From the sequence record OQ973471.1: DNA of 64,000 nt; one strand, 5' to 3'. The position numbers and the translations under genes are program-made. The first letter of the stretch is position 1. Each line of letters opens with the position of its first letter. Below the pieces are notes generated by a model. That model was not told the origin of the DNA. It worked only from the letters and a program-made list of their open reading frames with translations, and did no database searches. This document shows positions 2,083 through 49,492 of the stretch, in pieces. This stretch comes from Escherichia phage AV101.

Positions 2083-2642
2083 TGGCAGGAATTGTAAAGT
2101 ATCTGGGCGACACCCACCTCGGACACAAGAAGATCTTCAAGCCCCGTGGGTTCGATACCCAAGAGACGCATGATGCTGCAGTCATCGACAGTATCTTTCA
2201 GGGGCTGAAGTCTCGAGACGTCCTTGAACTGGCTGGGGACATCTGCTTCATCGGGGCTGAGGGGTTCATTCGCCTGATGCGCGAGGGTGCCAAGCGGAAT
2301 ATTGATGAGTTCAAGCGCCGCCCGGTTCCCGATGACTGGCGACCGAACTTTATCATCAGGGTGGCACAAGGCAACCATGACAGATTCAAGATGTTGATGC
2401 AGCTGTATCAAGAGGGATGGATTAGATCCTTTGGTGCGATGTATGAGCGTGATACTCCAGTTGGTCGTGTATTGACCACTCACGTTCCTTATCAATTAGA
2501 CCGCTGGGTGTATAATATCCATGGTCATCTTCACGAAAATATTCGCGAAGAGCGCGAATACCTGAACTGCAGCTGGGAACAATTCAAGCGTCCTGTAACC
2601 CTGTCTGAGTTGTTATACACAAATTTAGGAATTGTGCTATGA
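2082..2642 (+). CDS. calcineurin-like metallophosphoesterase
   Basis: Motifs GDTHLGH, GNHD, GHLH; ATG at 2082 overlaps upstream stop (TAATG) with GAGGAG RBS. Confidence 0.65.
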
Positions 2643-2971
2643 AAATATTCTTTCCTGGTCAGAAAGTACCCGAAGAAATAGAAAAGGTCGAGTTATTTGG
2701 TTATAAAATCGGTGATCCGTTCCTGCGATTTTCTTCACCATGTATCGTGAAGCGCGATCATGAAGGGTATTATGTGCGCCCAATCATTCTCATGGGTTCT
2801 GTCATGACGCTGAGAGCCAAAACAGACTCCGTCGTTATTACCGGAAGTCCTAACATACCCAATGGGAAGACCACACTCAATGGAAAGCCTATCCTGTCGT
2901 CTTGGGCGTTAATTGGATTTCTGTCTATAATCTTGTTTTATCGTTACCTTACCGACTTGGGGATCTTATGA
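2639..2971 (+). CDS. hypothetical protein with C-terminal transmembrane segment
   Basis: ATGA overlap start; C-terminal [13 protein letters not shown] hydrophobic stretch. Confidence 0.4.
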
Positions 2972-3297
2972 AAAAGCCACGCATCACAGGACATCAACTC
3001 TGCGTCCTTTTAGGAATGTTGAACTTTGAGAAAGGTCATTGCCGTTATGGTGAATGGTACTTTCATCCCAAATCCTGGACCAATGACAAGGGCAACACCG
3101 TCTGGACGTTCCGGGTATGCCCGAACGCTGGTGGTTTCACCTCCGTCAAAGGCAACCCCCGCACTGGGGCTTCCCTGTTGTCCAAAGGGTTAATTGAACC
3201 AGCTGGCTCAATGGTTCATGACGGTTCTTACGTGAACTGGCCGAACACTGAGGTGACGTTCTATCGCCTGACCGAACTCGGTAAATCTTATCTCTGA
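2968..3297 (+). CDS. hypothetical protein
   Basis: ATG at 2968 overlapping upstream stop (ATGA); track ORF 2902..3297 trimmed to this ATG. Confidence 0.4.
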   Translation: MKKPRITGHQLCVLLGMLNFEKGHCRYGEWYFHPKSWTNDKGNTVWTFRVCPNAGGFTSVKGNPRTGASLLSKGLIEPAGSMVHDGSYVNWPNTEVTFYRLTELGKSYL

Positions 3298-3367
3298 ATA
3301 AAGATTCAGCGGTTATTGAAGAAGGGGGAGTATATACTTCCCCTTAGTTTATTAAGAGGAACCGGAA

Positions 3368-3682
3368 ATGACCCCATTAAAAGAAATGTATGAGCGCCTG
3401 TCTGAACTACAGGCGAAGGAAAAGCGCTTCTCAGAAGAAGAGACAGAGCTGTCCGAGCTGAACACTTTGATCGCCACTCGTGAGAAGTACCTGCAGCGCT
3501 ACATTAATCACCCGCCGCGCATGGTAGACCGCGTCAGCACTATCATGGACCTGGATGAAGTTACTCCTGGCAAAGAAATCATTGTCAGGGAAGTCCACCA
3601 GATGGTCGCCATGGGTCAGATCTTTGGTCGTGCAGACCAAGACGACATGATCTTCCTCCTTGAAAAGAAACTGGTGATGTGA
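3368..3682 (+). CDS. hypothetical protein
   Basis: AAGAGGAA RBS before ATG 3368; 104 aa. Confidence 0.45.
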   Translation: MTPLKEMYERLSELQAKEKRFSEEETELSELNTLIATREKYLQRYINHPPRMVDRVSTIMDLDEVTPGKEIIVREVHQMVAMGQIFGRADQDDMIFLLEKKLVM

Positions 3683-4188
3683 TGGCTATCAAACCCCGTA
3701 TGTTGTTTGCGCATATGCGCTCGGCTCATGCATACGCTCTGTCCAGCTATGCACAACGCCTGAAGGTCGGCTGTGTTATCGTTGACCCGCGTGTTGACCA
3801 GCCCCTGTCTATCGGTTGGAACGGGACTGCTCCTGGCGCTCCTAATGTCTGTGAGAAGGAAGTAGACGGTCAACTGGTATCGGTGGGTGTTATCCACGCC
3901 GAGGAGAATGCTCTGAGCAAACTCCCCCAGCACACCGAAGACTGTTGTGGCCTGGTGATGTTTGTCACTCATAGTCCATGCCCAGAGTGCACCCGTCGTA
4001 TTATCGACAGTGGCAAGATCGCTAAAGTATTCTATGACCGACCATATCGTATCATAGACGGTATTATTGAAATGCTGGCTGCTGGGATTGAAGTATATCG
4101 CATGGTCGATCAGATTGTTGTAGTCCAGCATTCTGTGAAGAACGGCGAACTGGTATCCACCCCTGTTTTAGTGAACCCTGACAAATAA
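3682..4188 (+). CDS. cd: dCMP deaminase
   Basis: Zinc-deaminase motifs HAEENA and PCPEC; start ATG overlaps upstream stop (TGATG). Confidence 0.8.
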   Translation: MAIKPRMLFAHMRSAHAYALSSYAQRLKVGCVIVDPRVDQPLSIGWNGTAPGAPNVCEKEVDGQLVSVGVIHAEENALSKLPQHTEDCCGLVMFVTHSPCPECTRRIIDSGKIAKVFYDRPYRIIDGIIEMLAAGIEVYRMVDQIVVVQHSVKNGELVSTPVLVNPDK

Positions 4189-4198
4189 GGAATTTATC

Positions 4199-4606
4199 AT
4201 GCGTTATGTAGATCGTATGCTCGGCAAAGACGAGCACGTTATTGCCTTCACCCGCCCGACTTGGTGGAGCGGTTTTTGGATTTACGTTCTGGTTATTTTA
4301 ACGTTTATTCCAACATTTGGATTCAGCTTGTTATTTCTGATACCAACAATTTTAAATGTATTGACAACTGAATTCGCTGTGACTAACAAGCGCGTCATCG
4401 TCAAACGTGGTTTCATCCGTCGTGATGCTGATGAGTTGCGCATTGGTAAGGTGGAGACAGTGAAGGTTGATCAGTCCATCACAGGCCGCATCTTGGGCTT
4501 CTCAACAATCAGCGTGATCGGTACGGGTGGCACCCGCCTGCTGGCCAAGGGTTGTGCTGGTGGTAATGCTTTCCGTCAGAAGATCTACGATCACCTAGAA
4601 GACTGA
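4199..4606 (+). CDS. membrane protein with bacterial PH-like domain
   Basis: Two N-terminal hydrophobic helices followed by TNKRVIVKRGFIRRD...RILGFSTISVIGTGG pattern. Confidence 0.4.
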   Translation: MRYVDRMLGKDEHVIAFTRPTWWSGFWIYVLVILTFIPTFGFSLLFLIPTILNVLTTEFAVTNKRVIVKRGFIRRDADELRIGKVETVKVDQSITGRILGFSTISVIGTGGTRLLAKGCAGGNAFRQKIYDHLED

Positions 4607-4608
4607 TC

Positions 4609-4821
4609 ATGATCATTTCAGGTTACACCATCGATCTTTATTGTGAATGCTCAGATTGCAAGGCATGCAGTTGGGCTTGGGAAGAGCATCACCCCAAGTG
4701 CGGGTTCAAACAATACACTGGTGAGACTTGGGGTGAGTGTGTCAGGCAGGCTCGGGCTGATGGTTGGAAAATCGGGCGCGACAGACATACCTGTTACGCC
4801 CCTGGCCACAAGAGAAGTTAA
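4609..4821 (+). CDS. small Cys-rich protein
   Basis: 70 aa with CxC...CxxC...C..C pattern; no identified family. Confidence 0.35.
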   Translation: MIISGYTIDLYCECSDCKACSWAWEEHHPKCGFKQYTGETWGECVRQARADGWKIGRDRHTCYAPGHKRS

Positions 4822-5432
4822 GGTAAGAGCAGCCCATCATCCCGCTCCGTTGGGGCGGGTTTAATCTCCTTCCGCATCTGTTCCTTCAGCACCCTGACAC
4901 GTTCGGCATGTCGGCGATCTTGCATCTCCATATCCCGTTTCTTTTTCGACTTCAATTCGAACTGTTTACGAACATCCGGATCTTCACCTGGAACAAGATG
5001 CTCTTCAGTCCAGATAATGAACTTCCAGTTCTTCTTGGCACACAGTTCGCGGGTGGCCTCCCACTTGGCAGAATTGACCAACCAGGTTCGCATCGCATTG
5101 TTGAATGTCGACTCCTTCATGTTCGGAGTCTTCTTCGGCTGCTTGATCTGGTCTTTGGGCTTGATCTCAATGAGGGTGACCTGTAGTTCCTCTTGCCCTT
5201 CACGGCGCGTCCAGACCTTGAGGTCCATGAAGTAACGATGGGTGCGCCCGTCGACTGGGGAAATGTAAGGGATTACGGTCTCCTCACTAGACCACTTCAC
5301 TATCGCGGAGTTCATATCACAGAACTTGAAAGCCACCAACTCCAGCGAAGAGCGGAAGATGATGTTGTTCACATTCCCCTGATACTTCTTGGGATTAACC
5401 GGGGTGTACTTCCCCTGAAGATAGTTGCTCAT
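4818..5432 (-). CDS. head completion / DNA end protector family protein (gp4/gp2-like), tentative
   Basis: N-terminal KYxxVNPKKYQGNxNNIIFRSSLE...VIPYISPVDGRTHRYFMD pattern recalled from T4 gp4/gp2; ATG at 5432. Confidence 0.3.
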   Translation of the reverse strand: MSNYLQGKYTPVNPKKYQGNVNNIIFRSSLELVAFKFCDMNSAIVKWSSEETVIPYISPVDGRTHRYFMDLKVWTRREGQEELQVTLIEIKPKDQIKQPKKTPNMKESTFNNAMRTWLVNSAKWEATRELCAKKNWKFIIWTEEHLVPGEDPDVRKQFELKSKKKRDMEMQDRRHAERVRVLKEQMRKEIKPAPTERDDGLLLP

Positions 5433-13607: not shown

Positions 13608-13859
13608 GGTATGTTCCTTCTGTAAGTTCCCATGTATTATATGGGTGAATCGTTTAATGAATTATTTGTTATGGAAACCCAGAGCCTTGTGGACTTCTTC
13701 ACGATTTTAATTTCGGCCTGAGCCTCTGTGTGATTATCCGGTGCTTGTGATGTCAGACGAGGACTTTGTAAACAGCATTGGCGTCAATGGCATCGATTAG
13801 ACAACGGATCTCAGCGCATCAGGGGCTTACCCAACAGCCAGTTGAAATACTTGCGCATG

Positions 13860-14072
13860 TCACTTCCTCATCAGTGAGAGCAGGTTGACCGTAGCCGGGC
13901 GCGCATCAGGGGCGTAGAAGACGTCCTGAGAGTGCCTCTTACAGCACGGGCAATCCTTCGTGGCGATTACACAGGGAGCCTTGTCCACGGCAAATCCAGC
14001 GGCTTCGGCTTCCTTCACAGTGGTGAACGGCAGGTAAGCACTTGTGCCCTGCCCTCCGCATGAACATTCCAT
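13860..14072 (-). CDS. small Cys-rich protein
   Basis: ATG at 14072 after AAGAGGAAA RBS; C.CGG...C....C.CC pattern. Confidence 0.4.
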   Translation of the reverse strand: MECSCGGQGTSAYLPFTTVKEAEAAGFAVDKAPCVIATKDCPCCKRHSQDVFYAPDARPATVNLLSLMRK

Positions 14073-14188
14073 CAACGTTTCCTCTTAAAGGGGATGACCA
14101 GGGCTATGATGAGAAGCATAGCTGTAATCATCCCACATGCTATCAGACCGAAGGCGAACGACTTCAGAACAAACTCAATCAAATTCAT
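14072..14188 (-). CDS. 38-aa hydrophobic peptide (not in ORF track)
   Basis: ATG overlaps stop of upstream gene (ATGA) and its own stop overlaps next ATG (TGATG); translation MNLIEFVLKSFAFGLIACGMITAMLLIIALVIPFKRKR. Confidence 0.35.
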   Translation of the reverse strand: MNLIEFVLKSFAFGLIACGMITAMLLIIALVIPFKRKR

Positions 14189-15378
14189 AATTTCCTCAAT
14201 TTGGCTCTGGTGACCTGAGTTTGTTTAACGCCGTTGTACTCAGTCAGTTCTTTGACACGACCACGGATGATCATATCGCCCTGCAAGAACTCTGTATCCA
14301 TATAAGAGGTCTTCCAGGTAATTGTATTACCTTCTGCTGTTTTGAAAGTAAACAGGTAGCTATCACCATATTCATTGGAGAAGAGGAAGGTGCGCTTGTC
14401 GAACCTGACTTGCACTTCCAGCATTTCACCGACTTCACCCACCCATTTGTTCTCCGCCTTGCGGTCAGCACGAGGACGATGGATGTAATCGTAATACTTC
14501 TTGGCACCCCAGCGGACTGTGTTGTTATCCTTGATGAGGTGATAACCGGGTTCACACATGCGTTTCAGGCGAACATTGAACTCATTAGATTCGGACAGCG
14601 CACTGATGAAAAGCTTCATATGGTACATTTCCGACTCGGCGTCTTCACAGTATTCGTGTGCCTTGTTTACGAAATACTCTTCATCGGAACCTGCTTTTGG
14701 TTTCTGATGAGACCGGACATAGCCCAGTACTTTGTCAAACAGTTCAGACTTGATATCCACGCCTGCCAGCATCACCTGGAAGCATGCACGCAGGAAACTG
14801 TGGGTGTCAGTGAAGCGCTCATTTTGGACGCGATATATACCCTCTGGGTCGTCCTCGTCTGGCATGAAGAACTCTTGGATTTCCAGATAGTAAGACATAA
14901 TCGCGTCAAGCGATTTCTGATGAGGTACATAATGATGCATACAGGTGCTACCAATCAGCATCTGGGCATGCGTTTCCTCATTTTCAATCACATACGTGTT
15001 CTTGCGACGGATGACTAGATTGCAATGCTGACACCAAGAGACGTTCTCTGTCTCGAAGCGACGGATGAATTCTGGGTTGATGTTGTCAACCAGTTTGTTC
15101 AGAATGACCTTTGGATATTCATGATTGAACTGACCGATGATCTTCCAGCCACCATAAGAGACGGGGCGGTCAATGCCTTCGCCTTCGAGAGTAACAGGTT
15201 TCCACCAGTGAGTAAGGATCTCACCAGTGAAGTCGCGGGTGTGGGTTTTGAAGGGTTCACCATAAGTCACAGTCGGAAACGGAACACCCAACCTTTCGGC
15301 AGTGCGCTCGAGCTTCTTCAGTCGCTCAACTACCAACCCTTCATTGTCGATCGGAATATTGAATGTTTTGACGTTCAT
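14185..15378 (-). CDS. hypothetical protein with putative zinc-binding Cys/His cluster
   Basis: Start refined to ATG 15378 (GAGG RBS); WCQHCN...STCMHH cluster; own promoter and terminator. Confidence 0.45.
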   Translation of the reverse strand: MNVKTFNIPIDNEGLVVERLKKLERTAERLGVPFPTVTYGEPFKTHTRDFTGEILTHWWKPVTLEGEGIDRPVSYGGWKIIGQFNHEYPKVILNKLVDNINPEFIRRFETENVSWCQHCNLVIRRKNTYVIENEETHAQMLIGSTCMHHYVPHQKSLDAIMSYYLEIQEFFMPDEDDPEGIYRVQNERFTDTHSFLRACFQVMLAGVDIKSELFDKVLGYVRSHQKPKAGSDEEYFVNKAHEYCEDAESEMYHMKLFISALSESNEFNVRLKRMCEPGYHLIKDNNTVRWGAKKYYDYIHRPRADRKAENKWVGEVGEMLEVQVRFDKRTFLFSNEYGDSYLFTFKTAEGNTITWKTSYMDTEFLQGDMIIRGRVKELTEYNGVKQTQVTRAKLRKL

Positions 15379-15462: not shown

Positions 15463-15486
15463 AAAAAGCCCAGTACTTGACTGGGC
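15463..15486 (-). terminator. intrinsic terminator
   Basis: Stem GCCCAGT/ACTGGGC with 5-nt loop followed by T-run on minus strand. Confidence 0.6.
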
Positions 15487-15505
15487 TTCTTGGTGTTCTA
15501 TTGAC

Positions 15506-49020: not shown

Positions 49021-49331
49021 ACGTTTGTCTCAGATGTTCGGTAAAGGATTTACCCAGCTTGCGGAATAGTTTAATACGACCAATGACTTTGACGTAAACA
49101 TCTCCGTGGCAGGGGCGCGGCTTACACCAGCACCCCAATACCTTCCCGTCAAGATCAAGGAGTTCATCCTCAGTGATATCCCCCTTCAATCAGGCGCACA
49201 TACAGGTCGTCCTCAAACAGTTCGATACAGACGCCTCGTCCATGGTCTTTGACCTCAAACGGGTTTCCCCATTTACCAGGCCGACCAATGTAAACGTCAT
49301 ATGGCTCCTTCTTGAAGTGGACGACTTTCAT
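49001..49331 (-). pseudogene. DUF4326-like gene interrupted by a 1-nt frameshift in a C5/G5 homopolymer
   Basis: N-terminal half (MKVVHFKKEPYDVYIGRPGKWGNPF...) in one frame stops at 49170-49172; C-terminal half (LDLDGKVLGCWCKPRPCHGDV) in the +1 frame; shift at homopolymer 49180-49184. Confidence 0.5.
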
Positions 49332-49492
49332 TTCAGGATTTGACCTGCAAGTAGATAACAGAACCAGACAGAGAACCCGAGATACCCCAGTGCTTTCAGG
49401 TAGTTTTTCCTTTCGACTTCACGAGAAAACGCAACGATGTCAATGATGCATGCAAAGACCAGGATTGCGAGTTTAATTTGTTCGTAGTTCAT
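49328..49492 (-). CDS. 54-aa small hydrophobic protein (not in ORF track)
   Basis: ATG just downstream of gp46 stop; stop overlaps next ATG (ATGA); translation MNYEQIKLAILVFACIIDIVAF... Confidence 0.35.
   Translation of the reverse strand: MNYEQIKLAILVFACIIDIVAFSREVERKNYLKALGYLGFSVWFCYLLAGQILK

Follow-up and report, generated by a model that had tools for sequence, protein, structure and literature searches.

The locus and its annotation

Within a gene cluster that includes a primase-helicase, a small transcriptional regulator, a 397-aa protein, a Cys-rich 70-aa protein and a DNA ligase, the window (the whole stretch of DNA analyzed here, 64,000 nucleotides of Escherichia phage AV101, record OQ973471.1) carries an ORF which translates to MNLIEFVLKSFAFGLIACGMITAMLLIIALVIPFKRKR, a peptide of 38 aa (Table 1). 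The preliminary description of this DNA placed the ATG of the 38-codon frame over the stop of the 397-aa gene and its stop over the ATG of the next gene; the sequence agrees with both statements, and the strand, left unstated there, is minus.

Table 1. Coordinates in the window of the peptide gene, its neighbours, associated signals and other features mentioned in the text
Feature	Position	Strand	Description
Peptide ORF, stop included	14188..14072	minus	predicted single-pass hydrophobic peptide, sequence given in the text; phrog_6569
Upstream 397-aa gene	14185..15378	minus	phrog_2319, family without assigned function; earlier starts give 401 or 408 aa
Downstream 70-aa gene	13860..14072	minus	Cys-rich, MECSCGG...; phrog_4789, family without assigned function; conserved to Vibrio phage K446
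ATGA overlap	14185..14188	minus	peptide ATG (14188-14186) and TGA (14187-14185) of the 397-aa gene
TGATG overlap	14070..14074	minus	peptide TGA (14074-14072), one base common with the ATG (14072-14070) of the 70-aa gene
GAGGA	14193..14197	minus	Shine-Dalgarno sequence of the peptide gene, in the final codons of the 397-aa gene, 4-5 nt 5' of the ATG
AAGAGGA	14080..14086	minus	peptide codons K35-R36-K37; also Shine-Dalgarno sequence of the next gene, 8 nt 5' of its ATG
Hairpin and T-run	15466..15488	minus	between the 104-aa and 397-aa genes; candidate terminator before the promoter region of the peptide's transcription unit
Decayed gene	13608-13860	minus	orf00051 family; ~250-nt 'gap' that separates the 70-aa from the 113-aa gene
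54-aa ORF	49328-49492	minus	strongly hydrophobic, MNYEQIKLAILVFACIIDIVAFS...

The arrangement ttGAGGAaatt-ATGA, in which the Shine-Dalgarno sequence (SD) precedes the overlapping start, is kept in the window, Ag3, A221, LIMEstone1, CBA120, EspM4VN and both Taipeivirus loci. At the other end of the ORF, AAGAGGAAA is conserved whichever gene comes next, that is, the 70-aa gene in the window, Ag3 and Taipeivirus or an inserted 66-aa gene in CBA120, L003 and EspM4VN, and in the arrangement AAGAGGAAACGT-TGATG the codons of K35-R36-K37 double as the SD of that gene. Since the same codons form this SD, the invariance of KRK has two possible causes, the peptide sequence or the downstream signal. Overlaps of -1 or -4 are found at 4 of the 11 gene junctions of the Ag3 cluster; overlaps and coupling are therefore the local norm and no special mark, and by themselves they are weak evidence. 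It had been argued from the double overlap that the peptide is translated; that argument does not carry far when the overlaps are taken alone, and the part of it that stands, the reality of the gene, is supported by the conservation of the frame and the purifying selection described below. An mRNA hairpin hiding the SD gave a z-score of -1.92 in the window, +0.96 in CBA120 and -0.33 in Taipeivirus, with short CUCAG/YUGAG pairing located in conserved coding sequence. No SD-hiding fold was conserved across these genera, and thus obligatory coupling gains no additional support. Further upstream, the hairpin followed by a T-run is probably a terminator; the annotations of KWBSE43-6 and LIMEstone1 show terminators at the corresponding position, and that of LIMEstone1 adds a 'putative middle promoter'.

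The gene was also first described as unannotated, which is true for the ORF track only, as GenBank, UniProt and PHROGs already hold it; the peptide gene is known in public phage genomes and is not new. The window peptide matches the profile of phrog_6569 (PHROGs v4, a family without assigned function) with E 1.5e-26 and 92.9 bits, residues 1-38 aligning to positions 1-38 of 38, and it sits directly after the phrog_2319 gene, as do the deposited members of the family; the junction is the same in Ag3, A221, CBA120, KWBSE43-6, EspM4VN and LIMEstone1. The deposited members are the same gene, with the same position and overlaps, and nothing of substance distinguishes them from the window peptide; they also have no function label. 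Existing entries include orf00054 of Shigella phage Ag3 (ACO94283.1, 'hypothetical membrane protein, one transmembrane domain'), ORF034 of Dickeya phage LIMEstone1 (CCD57595.1, 'putative transmembrane domain present'), a 'putative membrane protein' of Escherichia phage A221 identical to the window peptide (UTQ72665.1), and a protein of Salmonella phage Vi01 (ADQ55828.1; UniProt E1XT59). The exact window sequence is present in NCBI and on 151 contigs. Only two PHROG families, both of unknown function, match the peptide, and scans of the peptide and its neighbours against Pfam (E up to 1), NCBIfam and PADLOC yielded nothing useful. No report on the expression or function of the gene was found in the literature searched. 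The peptide sequence itself is unsurprising and the finding an ordinary one, its significance lying mostly in annotation hygiene, as a 60-aa ORF cutoff conceals a real and strongly conserved gene. The ORF is also intact yet uncalled in other records (locus positions 2001-2117 of CBA120, JN593240.1; ~3204-3338 of CRW-SP2, OR464140.1; 2691-2831 of 0507-KN2-1).

Conservation of the frame and selection on it

Megablast assigns the region, and with it the phage of the window, to the Ackermannviridae (Aglimvirinae), the identity being ~97% to Salmonella phage vB_CECAV_050 and to Escherichia phages PC3, PH4 and A221. When the peptide was used as a tblastn query, the full-length frame was recovered in 218 of 221 phage records, which span Agtrevirus, Limestonevirus and Kuttervirus, at 81-100% identity. 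The comparison with related phages that the preliminary description had named as a check thus comes out in favor of the gene, with the frame kept across the three genera at a dN/dS of ~0.1. Among the three exceptions, two (pertopsoe and D5lw) still have an intact ORF; in these phages a deletion took out the 397-aa gene, so that the peptide is now fused in frame with what is left of a homing-endonuclease ORF. In the third, Salmonella phage 38, one C is lost from a CCC run, which truncates the match, and the 397-aa gene of the same record is frameshifted too; the truncation is probably a sequencing error and not gene loss.

In the pertopsoe fusion (NC_049507.1, locus positions 1537-1911) the ~75 5'-terminal codons of a gene for an F-LimIV-like HNH homing endonuclease are joined to the peptide ORF, and the resulting 124-aa CDS is labelled 'homing endonuclease', with the SD, ATG and 38 codons of the peptide intact inside it. 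The label is rejected for the peptide, as it stems from the deletion fusion of pertopsoe and D5lw, and bare 38-aa ORFs elsewhere look like having received it by transfer from the fusion. For instance, in GEC_vB_N6 (MW006480.1) the bare ORF (1801-1917 of the locus) carries the name 'putative HNH homing endonuclease', and 'putative DNA ligase' is given for both the 70-aa (1917-2126) and the 113-aa (2128-2469) gene of the same record; these labels are apparent errors.

The window and CBA120 differ in the peptide ORF by 15.5 synonymous and 8.5 nonsynonymous changes (Nei-Gojobori), corresponding to dS ~1.1, dN 0.10 and dN/dS 0.095. By codon position the differences are distributed 8/1/15, so that only one of the 24 changes falls in position 2. 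The two other frames of the same DNA contain stops and have a dN/dS of at least 1; purifying selection acts in the peptide frame only. Synonymous sites are near saturation, and therefore the similarity does not come from recent transfer. At the same depth, dN is 0.10 for the peptide, 0.25 for the 397-aa gene and 0.07 for the 70-aa gene, that is, the peptide is more constrained than its upstream neighbour and about as constrained as the downstream one. A smaller synonymous divergence was observed against LIMEstone1 (3694-3810 of the locus), where pS is 0.22 for the peptide and 0.47-0.48 for the flanking genes, the peptide figure resting on a small sample of 6 changes. This halving could be caused by embedded SD or initiation signals or by local recombination.

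As the frame is intact in nearly all records and the purifying selection is specific to it, the 38 codons almost certainly constitute a genuine protein-coding gene of Ackermannviridae phages. Chance alone yields open frames of 38 codons not infrequently, and many short ORFs are spurious, so a fortuitous open frame in an intergenic spacer could be suspected; however, conservation and selection refute it, and its probability is negligible. It could also be considered that the ORF is a translational relay, which hands ribosomes leaving the 397-aa gene on to the next one and holds the SD of the latter, the peptide itself being functionless. The use of codons 35-37 as the downstream SD and the overlaps at both ends agree with such a role. 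However, the amino acids are under purifying selection along the whole ORF, position-2 changes are almost missing, Gly, Ala and Leu positions are invariant, and the helix with its basic tail persists in diverged forms or where the overlaps are lost (KNP4, L018), which makes the relay as sole role highly improbable. That the peptide is translated is inferred from its evolution together with its SD and the overlaps; a literature search for transcriptome, proteome or ribosome-profiling data on Ackermannviridae returned only virion proteomics and reviews silent on the gene.

Beyond the close relatives, diverged homologues or look-alike transmembrane (TM) peptides of 30-46 aa are located at or near this junction in every Ackermannviridae lineage examined, and in most lineages compared a short hydrophobic peptide, basic at its tail end, occupies the slot right after the 397-aa homologue. 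Its length is 37 aa in EspM4VN (MKLIEFVLKSIAFGLVVCGALVALLVLLALADRIKRR), 46 aa in Taipeivirus (gp058 in the KWBSE43-6 annotation; 37% identity to the window peptide), 44 aa in Salmonella phage CRW-SP2 (uncalled in the record), 30 aa in Miltonvirus KNP4, where a 3-nt gap separates it from the upstream gene, and 45 aa in a metagenomic relative whose neighbour is 45% identical and in which the peptide overlaps the next gene by 11 nt. In phiEa2809-like phages a 37-aa look-alike TM/KRK peptide lies one gene further, past an inserted 105-aa gene. The helix and the basic tail are retained at 23-37% identity or without the overlaps (KNP4, locus L018). A profile search of 5.8 billion proteins returned only 21 clusters of 30-46 aa, in which every named match belongs to an Ackermannviridae phage and any long contig on record measures about 150-160 kb, as genomes of this family do; one match, P0049, bridges the 46-aa and 38-aa forms. 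On these data the peptide family appears restricted to one phage family. In Vibrio phage K446 (OZ196324.1, locus positions 2446-3196) the slot, located between a 403-aa homologue and the Cys-rich gene, which is followed by the ligase, is filled by two larger proteins, one of 129 and one of 122 aa, both with a hydrophobic segment at the N-terminus; homology of these proteins to the peptide could not be demonstrated.

Predicted membrane topology and possible modes of action

The peptide had been read as a single-helix membrane peptide, and its hydropathy backs one helix within the 38 aa, the best 19-aa window (residues 14-32) having a mean Kyte-Doolittle hydropathy of 2.74 and the whole peptide a GRAVY of 1.4. 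The net charge is 0 in the N-terminal flank and +4 in the C-terminal one, which ends in the KRKR tail; because the first is uncharged and the tail is basic, an N-out/C-in topology is predicted by the positive-inside rule, leaving a cytoplasmic tail of only 4-6 residues. We regard the membrane nature and this orientation as probable. The Pf3 coat protein, which has 44 aa, is oriented N-out/C-in and depends on YidC, resembles the predicted build, in which one helix is flanked by a short N-tail with an acidic residue and by a basic C-tail. The likeness suggests the same orientation and insertion route for the phage peptide, the analogy being one of topology only; the phage peptide does not belong to the virion and has no sequence relationship to Pf3. 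A peptide of 38 aa is finished inside the ribosome tunnel, so that co-translational targeting would not take place and insertion would proceed post-translationally via SecYEG or YidC (PMC12648545).

One of the mechanisms by which such a peptide might act is the modulation of a larger membrane protein. The gene lies in a DNA replication/recombination cluster, and it is proposed to share a transcript with the 397-aa and 70-aa genes; the promoter is probably a middle one, as the annotation of its relative LIMEstone1 suggests. Translation would start from its own GAGGA SD, probably aided by ribosomes terminating at the overlapping ATGA, and would yield a product of 38 aa with one transmembrane helix at about residues 10-34, placed N-out/C-in according to the positive-inside rule and presumably inserted after translation through SecYEG or YidC (PMC12648545). 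The peptide would then bind a larger host or phage inner-membrane protein by helix-helix packing at G14/G19/A23/A29 and alter its activity during infection, and its last lysine and arginine codons also serve the next gene as ribosome-binding site. As a whole this explanation is considered likely, a judgement that covers the reality of the gene and the membrane nature and orientation of its product. The action as a small inner-membrane modulator through helix-helix contacts is a best guess and is put forward tentatively; it is favored because other proteins this small work in this way (PMC12648545). The bacterial class of AcrZ, MgrB, MgtS and CydX, small inner-membrane proteins which modulate larger ones and are reviewed in the same source, shares with the peptide a size below 50 aa, one TM helix, very short tails and post-translational insertion; however, there is no sequence relationship, and the peptide is encoded by phages and found in one phage family only. 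Were its function determined, the peptide would enlarge the known set of small membrane proteins, which is growing, by one phage example; Ackermannviridae find use in biocontrol and in diagnostics.

Among 18 distinct 38-aa forms, M1, G14, L15, G19, A23, L25, A29, L30 and K35-R36-K37 are invariant, and G14 and G19 remain so once the Taipeivirus and Miltonvirus forms join the alignment. One-sided conservation on the helix was not significant, as 1422 of 5000 shuffles reached the observed moment. A defined helix packing face was therefore dropped, since the conserved positions show no clustering on one face. The fast divergence (down to the 37% identity with Taipeivirus) is as compatible with a membrane anchor under loose constraint as with a specific binder. 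With respect to the partner, the peptide ORF with its SD and ATG is retained in pertopsoe, although the 397-aa gene is deleted there. As this phage lost the upstream gene, the peptide appears to be independent of it, and since the downstream neighbour also varies between phages, neither neighbour is likely to be a strict partner of the peptide. A broader proposal is that the peptide is a core host-interaction factor of the whole family Ackermannviridae, which targets a conserved enterobacterial membrane protein, with variants tracking the host genus and tail codons in dual use as a ribosome-binding site. The target would be, for example, a transporter, a protease, an insertase or a membrane-bound defence component, and the variants would include the form of EspM4VN and the 46-aa one of Taipeivirus. 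We hold this proposal to be rather improbable.

A specific case of the modulator idea is superinfection exclusion or immunity of the kind provided by T4 Imm or Sp, in which an early or middle inner-membrane peptide blocks the DNA entry of a second phage. Similarly to Imm and Sp, which are small membrane proteins among the early and middle genes of a large lytic myovirus, the peptide is a small membrane one located among genes for early or middle DNA metabolism and not among lysis or structural genes; it is confined to one phage family and is kept when the upstream gene is lost. However, no similarity was detected to T4 Imm or Sp, the former being larger (83 aa, with two hydrophobic segments), nor to any Pfam (E up to 1) or PHROG family with such a function. 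Proteins of this kind are also usually accessory and variable, whereas the peptide or a look-alike is present in every lineage examined. Exclusion is thus an unlikely function.

Another debatable possibility is a membrane-damaging peptide, similar to type I toxins or to holins and antiholins, which would depolarize or permeabilize the inner membrane for host shut-off or for the timing of lysis. The type I toxins TisB, Hok, Ldr and Ibs are hydrophobic, shorter than 60 aa and built of one helix with few charged terminal residues, and the size, the single helix and the short charged tail of the peptide match this build (PMC12648545). However, these toxins form stand-alone toxin-antitoxin loci, whereas the peptide gene lies inside a polycistronic phage operon and shows neither an antisense RNA signal nor a conserved SD-sequestering fold. 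A consensus scan of the opposite strand found 4 promoter-like sites, one of them at 14163-14191, against 4.7 expected, which is chance level and gives no sign of an antisense antitoxin RNA, such a scan being unable to exclude one. The neighbours are DNA-metabolism genes, with no endolysin or spanin genes among them, and the predicted promoter is a middle and not a late one (LIMEstone1 annotation). Placement in a holin/antiholin lysis cassette was likewise rejected, since the primase-helicase, the regulator, the phrog_2319 protein, the Cys-rich protein and the DNA ligase surround the gene. Taken together, membrane damage is quite unlikely, and modulation by helix-helix contacts remains the tentatively preferred mode of action.

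Neighbouring genes and their variation in related phages

The start of the 397-aa gene at the ATG at 15378 agrees with relatives whose proteins begin with MDAKTF or MKAKTF. The AlphaFold (AF2) model of the protein has a mean pLDDT of 79.9 and a C-terminal OB-like beta-barrel at residues ~319-396; fold matches to OB-fold SSB are weak (best E 3.9e-3) and cover the C-terminal ~90 residues only. In the alignment of homologues Cys116, Cys119 and Cys146 are invariant and His148 nearly so, which suggests a zinc site. The label 'RecT-like ssDNA annealing protein' (PQ306799.1) was rejected for this protein, as there was no RecT Pfam match at E<=1 and no fold support. A PDB sequence search with the 397-aa protein gave one match only, at chance level. 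Homologues of the 397-aa protein extend to Vibrio Straboviridae (KVP40.0369 family). KVP40-like Straboviridae were considered as synteny relatives and set aside, because the homologue is present but synteny at the junction is not.

The proximity of these genes raises the question of whether the peptide is a membrane tether of the OB-fold-like 397-aa protein, of the Cys-rich 70-aa protein or of both, with tight coupling setting the stoichiometry. Aglimvirinae, Kuttervirus and Taipeivirus all keep the overlaps at both ends of the peptide gene, and the order of 397-aa homologue, membrane-anchored product or products, Cys-rich gene and ligase holds as far as Vibrio phage K446; the OB-like domain of the 397-aa model would also be in line with tethering. 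However, pertopsoe and D5lw have no 397-aa gene and yet keep the peptide, a different gene follows it in CBA120, EspM4VN and L003, the predicted cytoplasmic tail offers little surface for a soluble partner, and overlapping junctions are common in the genome. The tether is therefore very doubtful.

The gene that intervenes between the peptide and 70-aa genes in some Kuttervirus and Agtrevirus encodes a very basic, Cys-containing protein of 66 aa (MKREI..GSCCPGHDKYP..) and is absent in the window. It occupies positions 2117-2317 of the CBA120 and EspM4VN loci and 2041-2241 of L003, and uses the SD in the KRK codons; besides CBA120 and EspM4VN, one IMG/VR contig carries it after the peptide. On the other side of the 70-aa gene, the apparent gap in the window corresponds to a decayed copy of a gene that encodes 115-124 aa in Ag3, A221 and L005. 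The reading frame of the copy shifts by +1 after about codon 13, and the copy has also lost ~150 bp internally and, separately, 1 nt. Further along, relatives (Ag3, 3593-5114; L018, 2449-3051 of the loci) have, after the 113-aa gene, a 200-202-aa 'e.6-like' protein with a weak PspA_IM30 Pfam match on record, followed by three single-TM proteins; the window and A221 have the DNA ligase gene there. In a quick scan of the window, the sole other short, strongly hydrophobic ORF that fills a gap in this manner was the 54-aa one listed in Table 1, which begins 2 nt past the stop of a 781-aa gene and has a 4-nt overlap with the start of the next small ORF.
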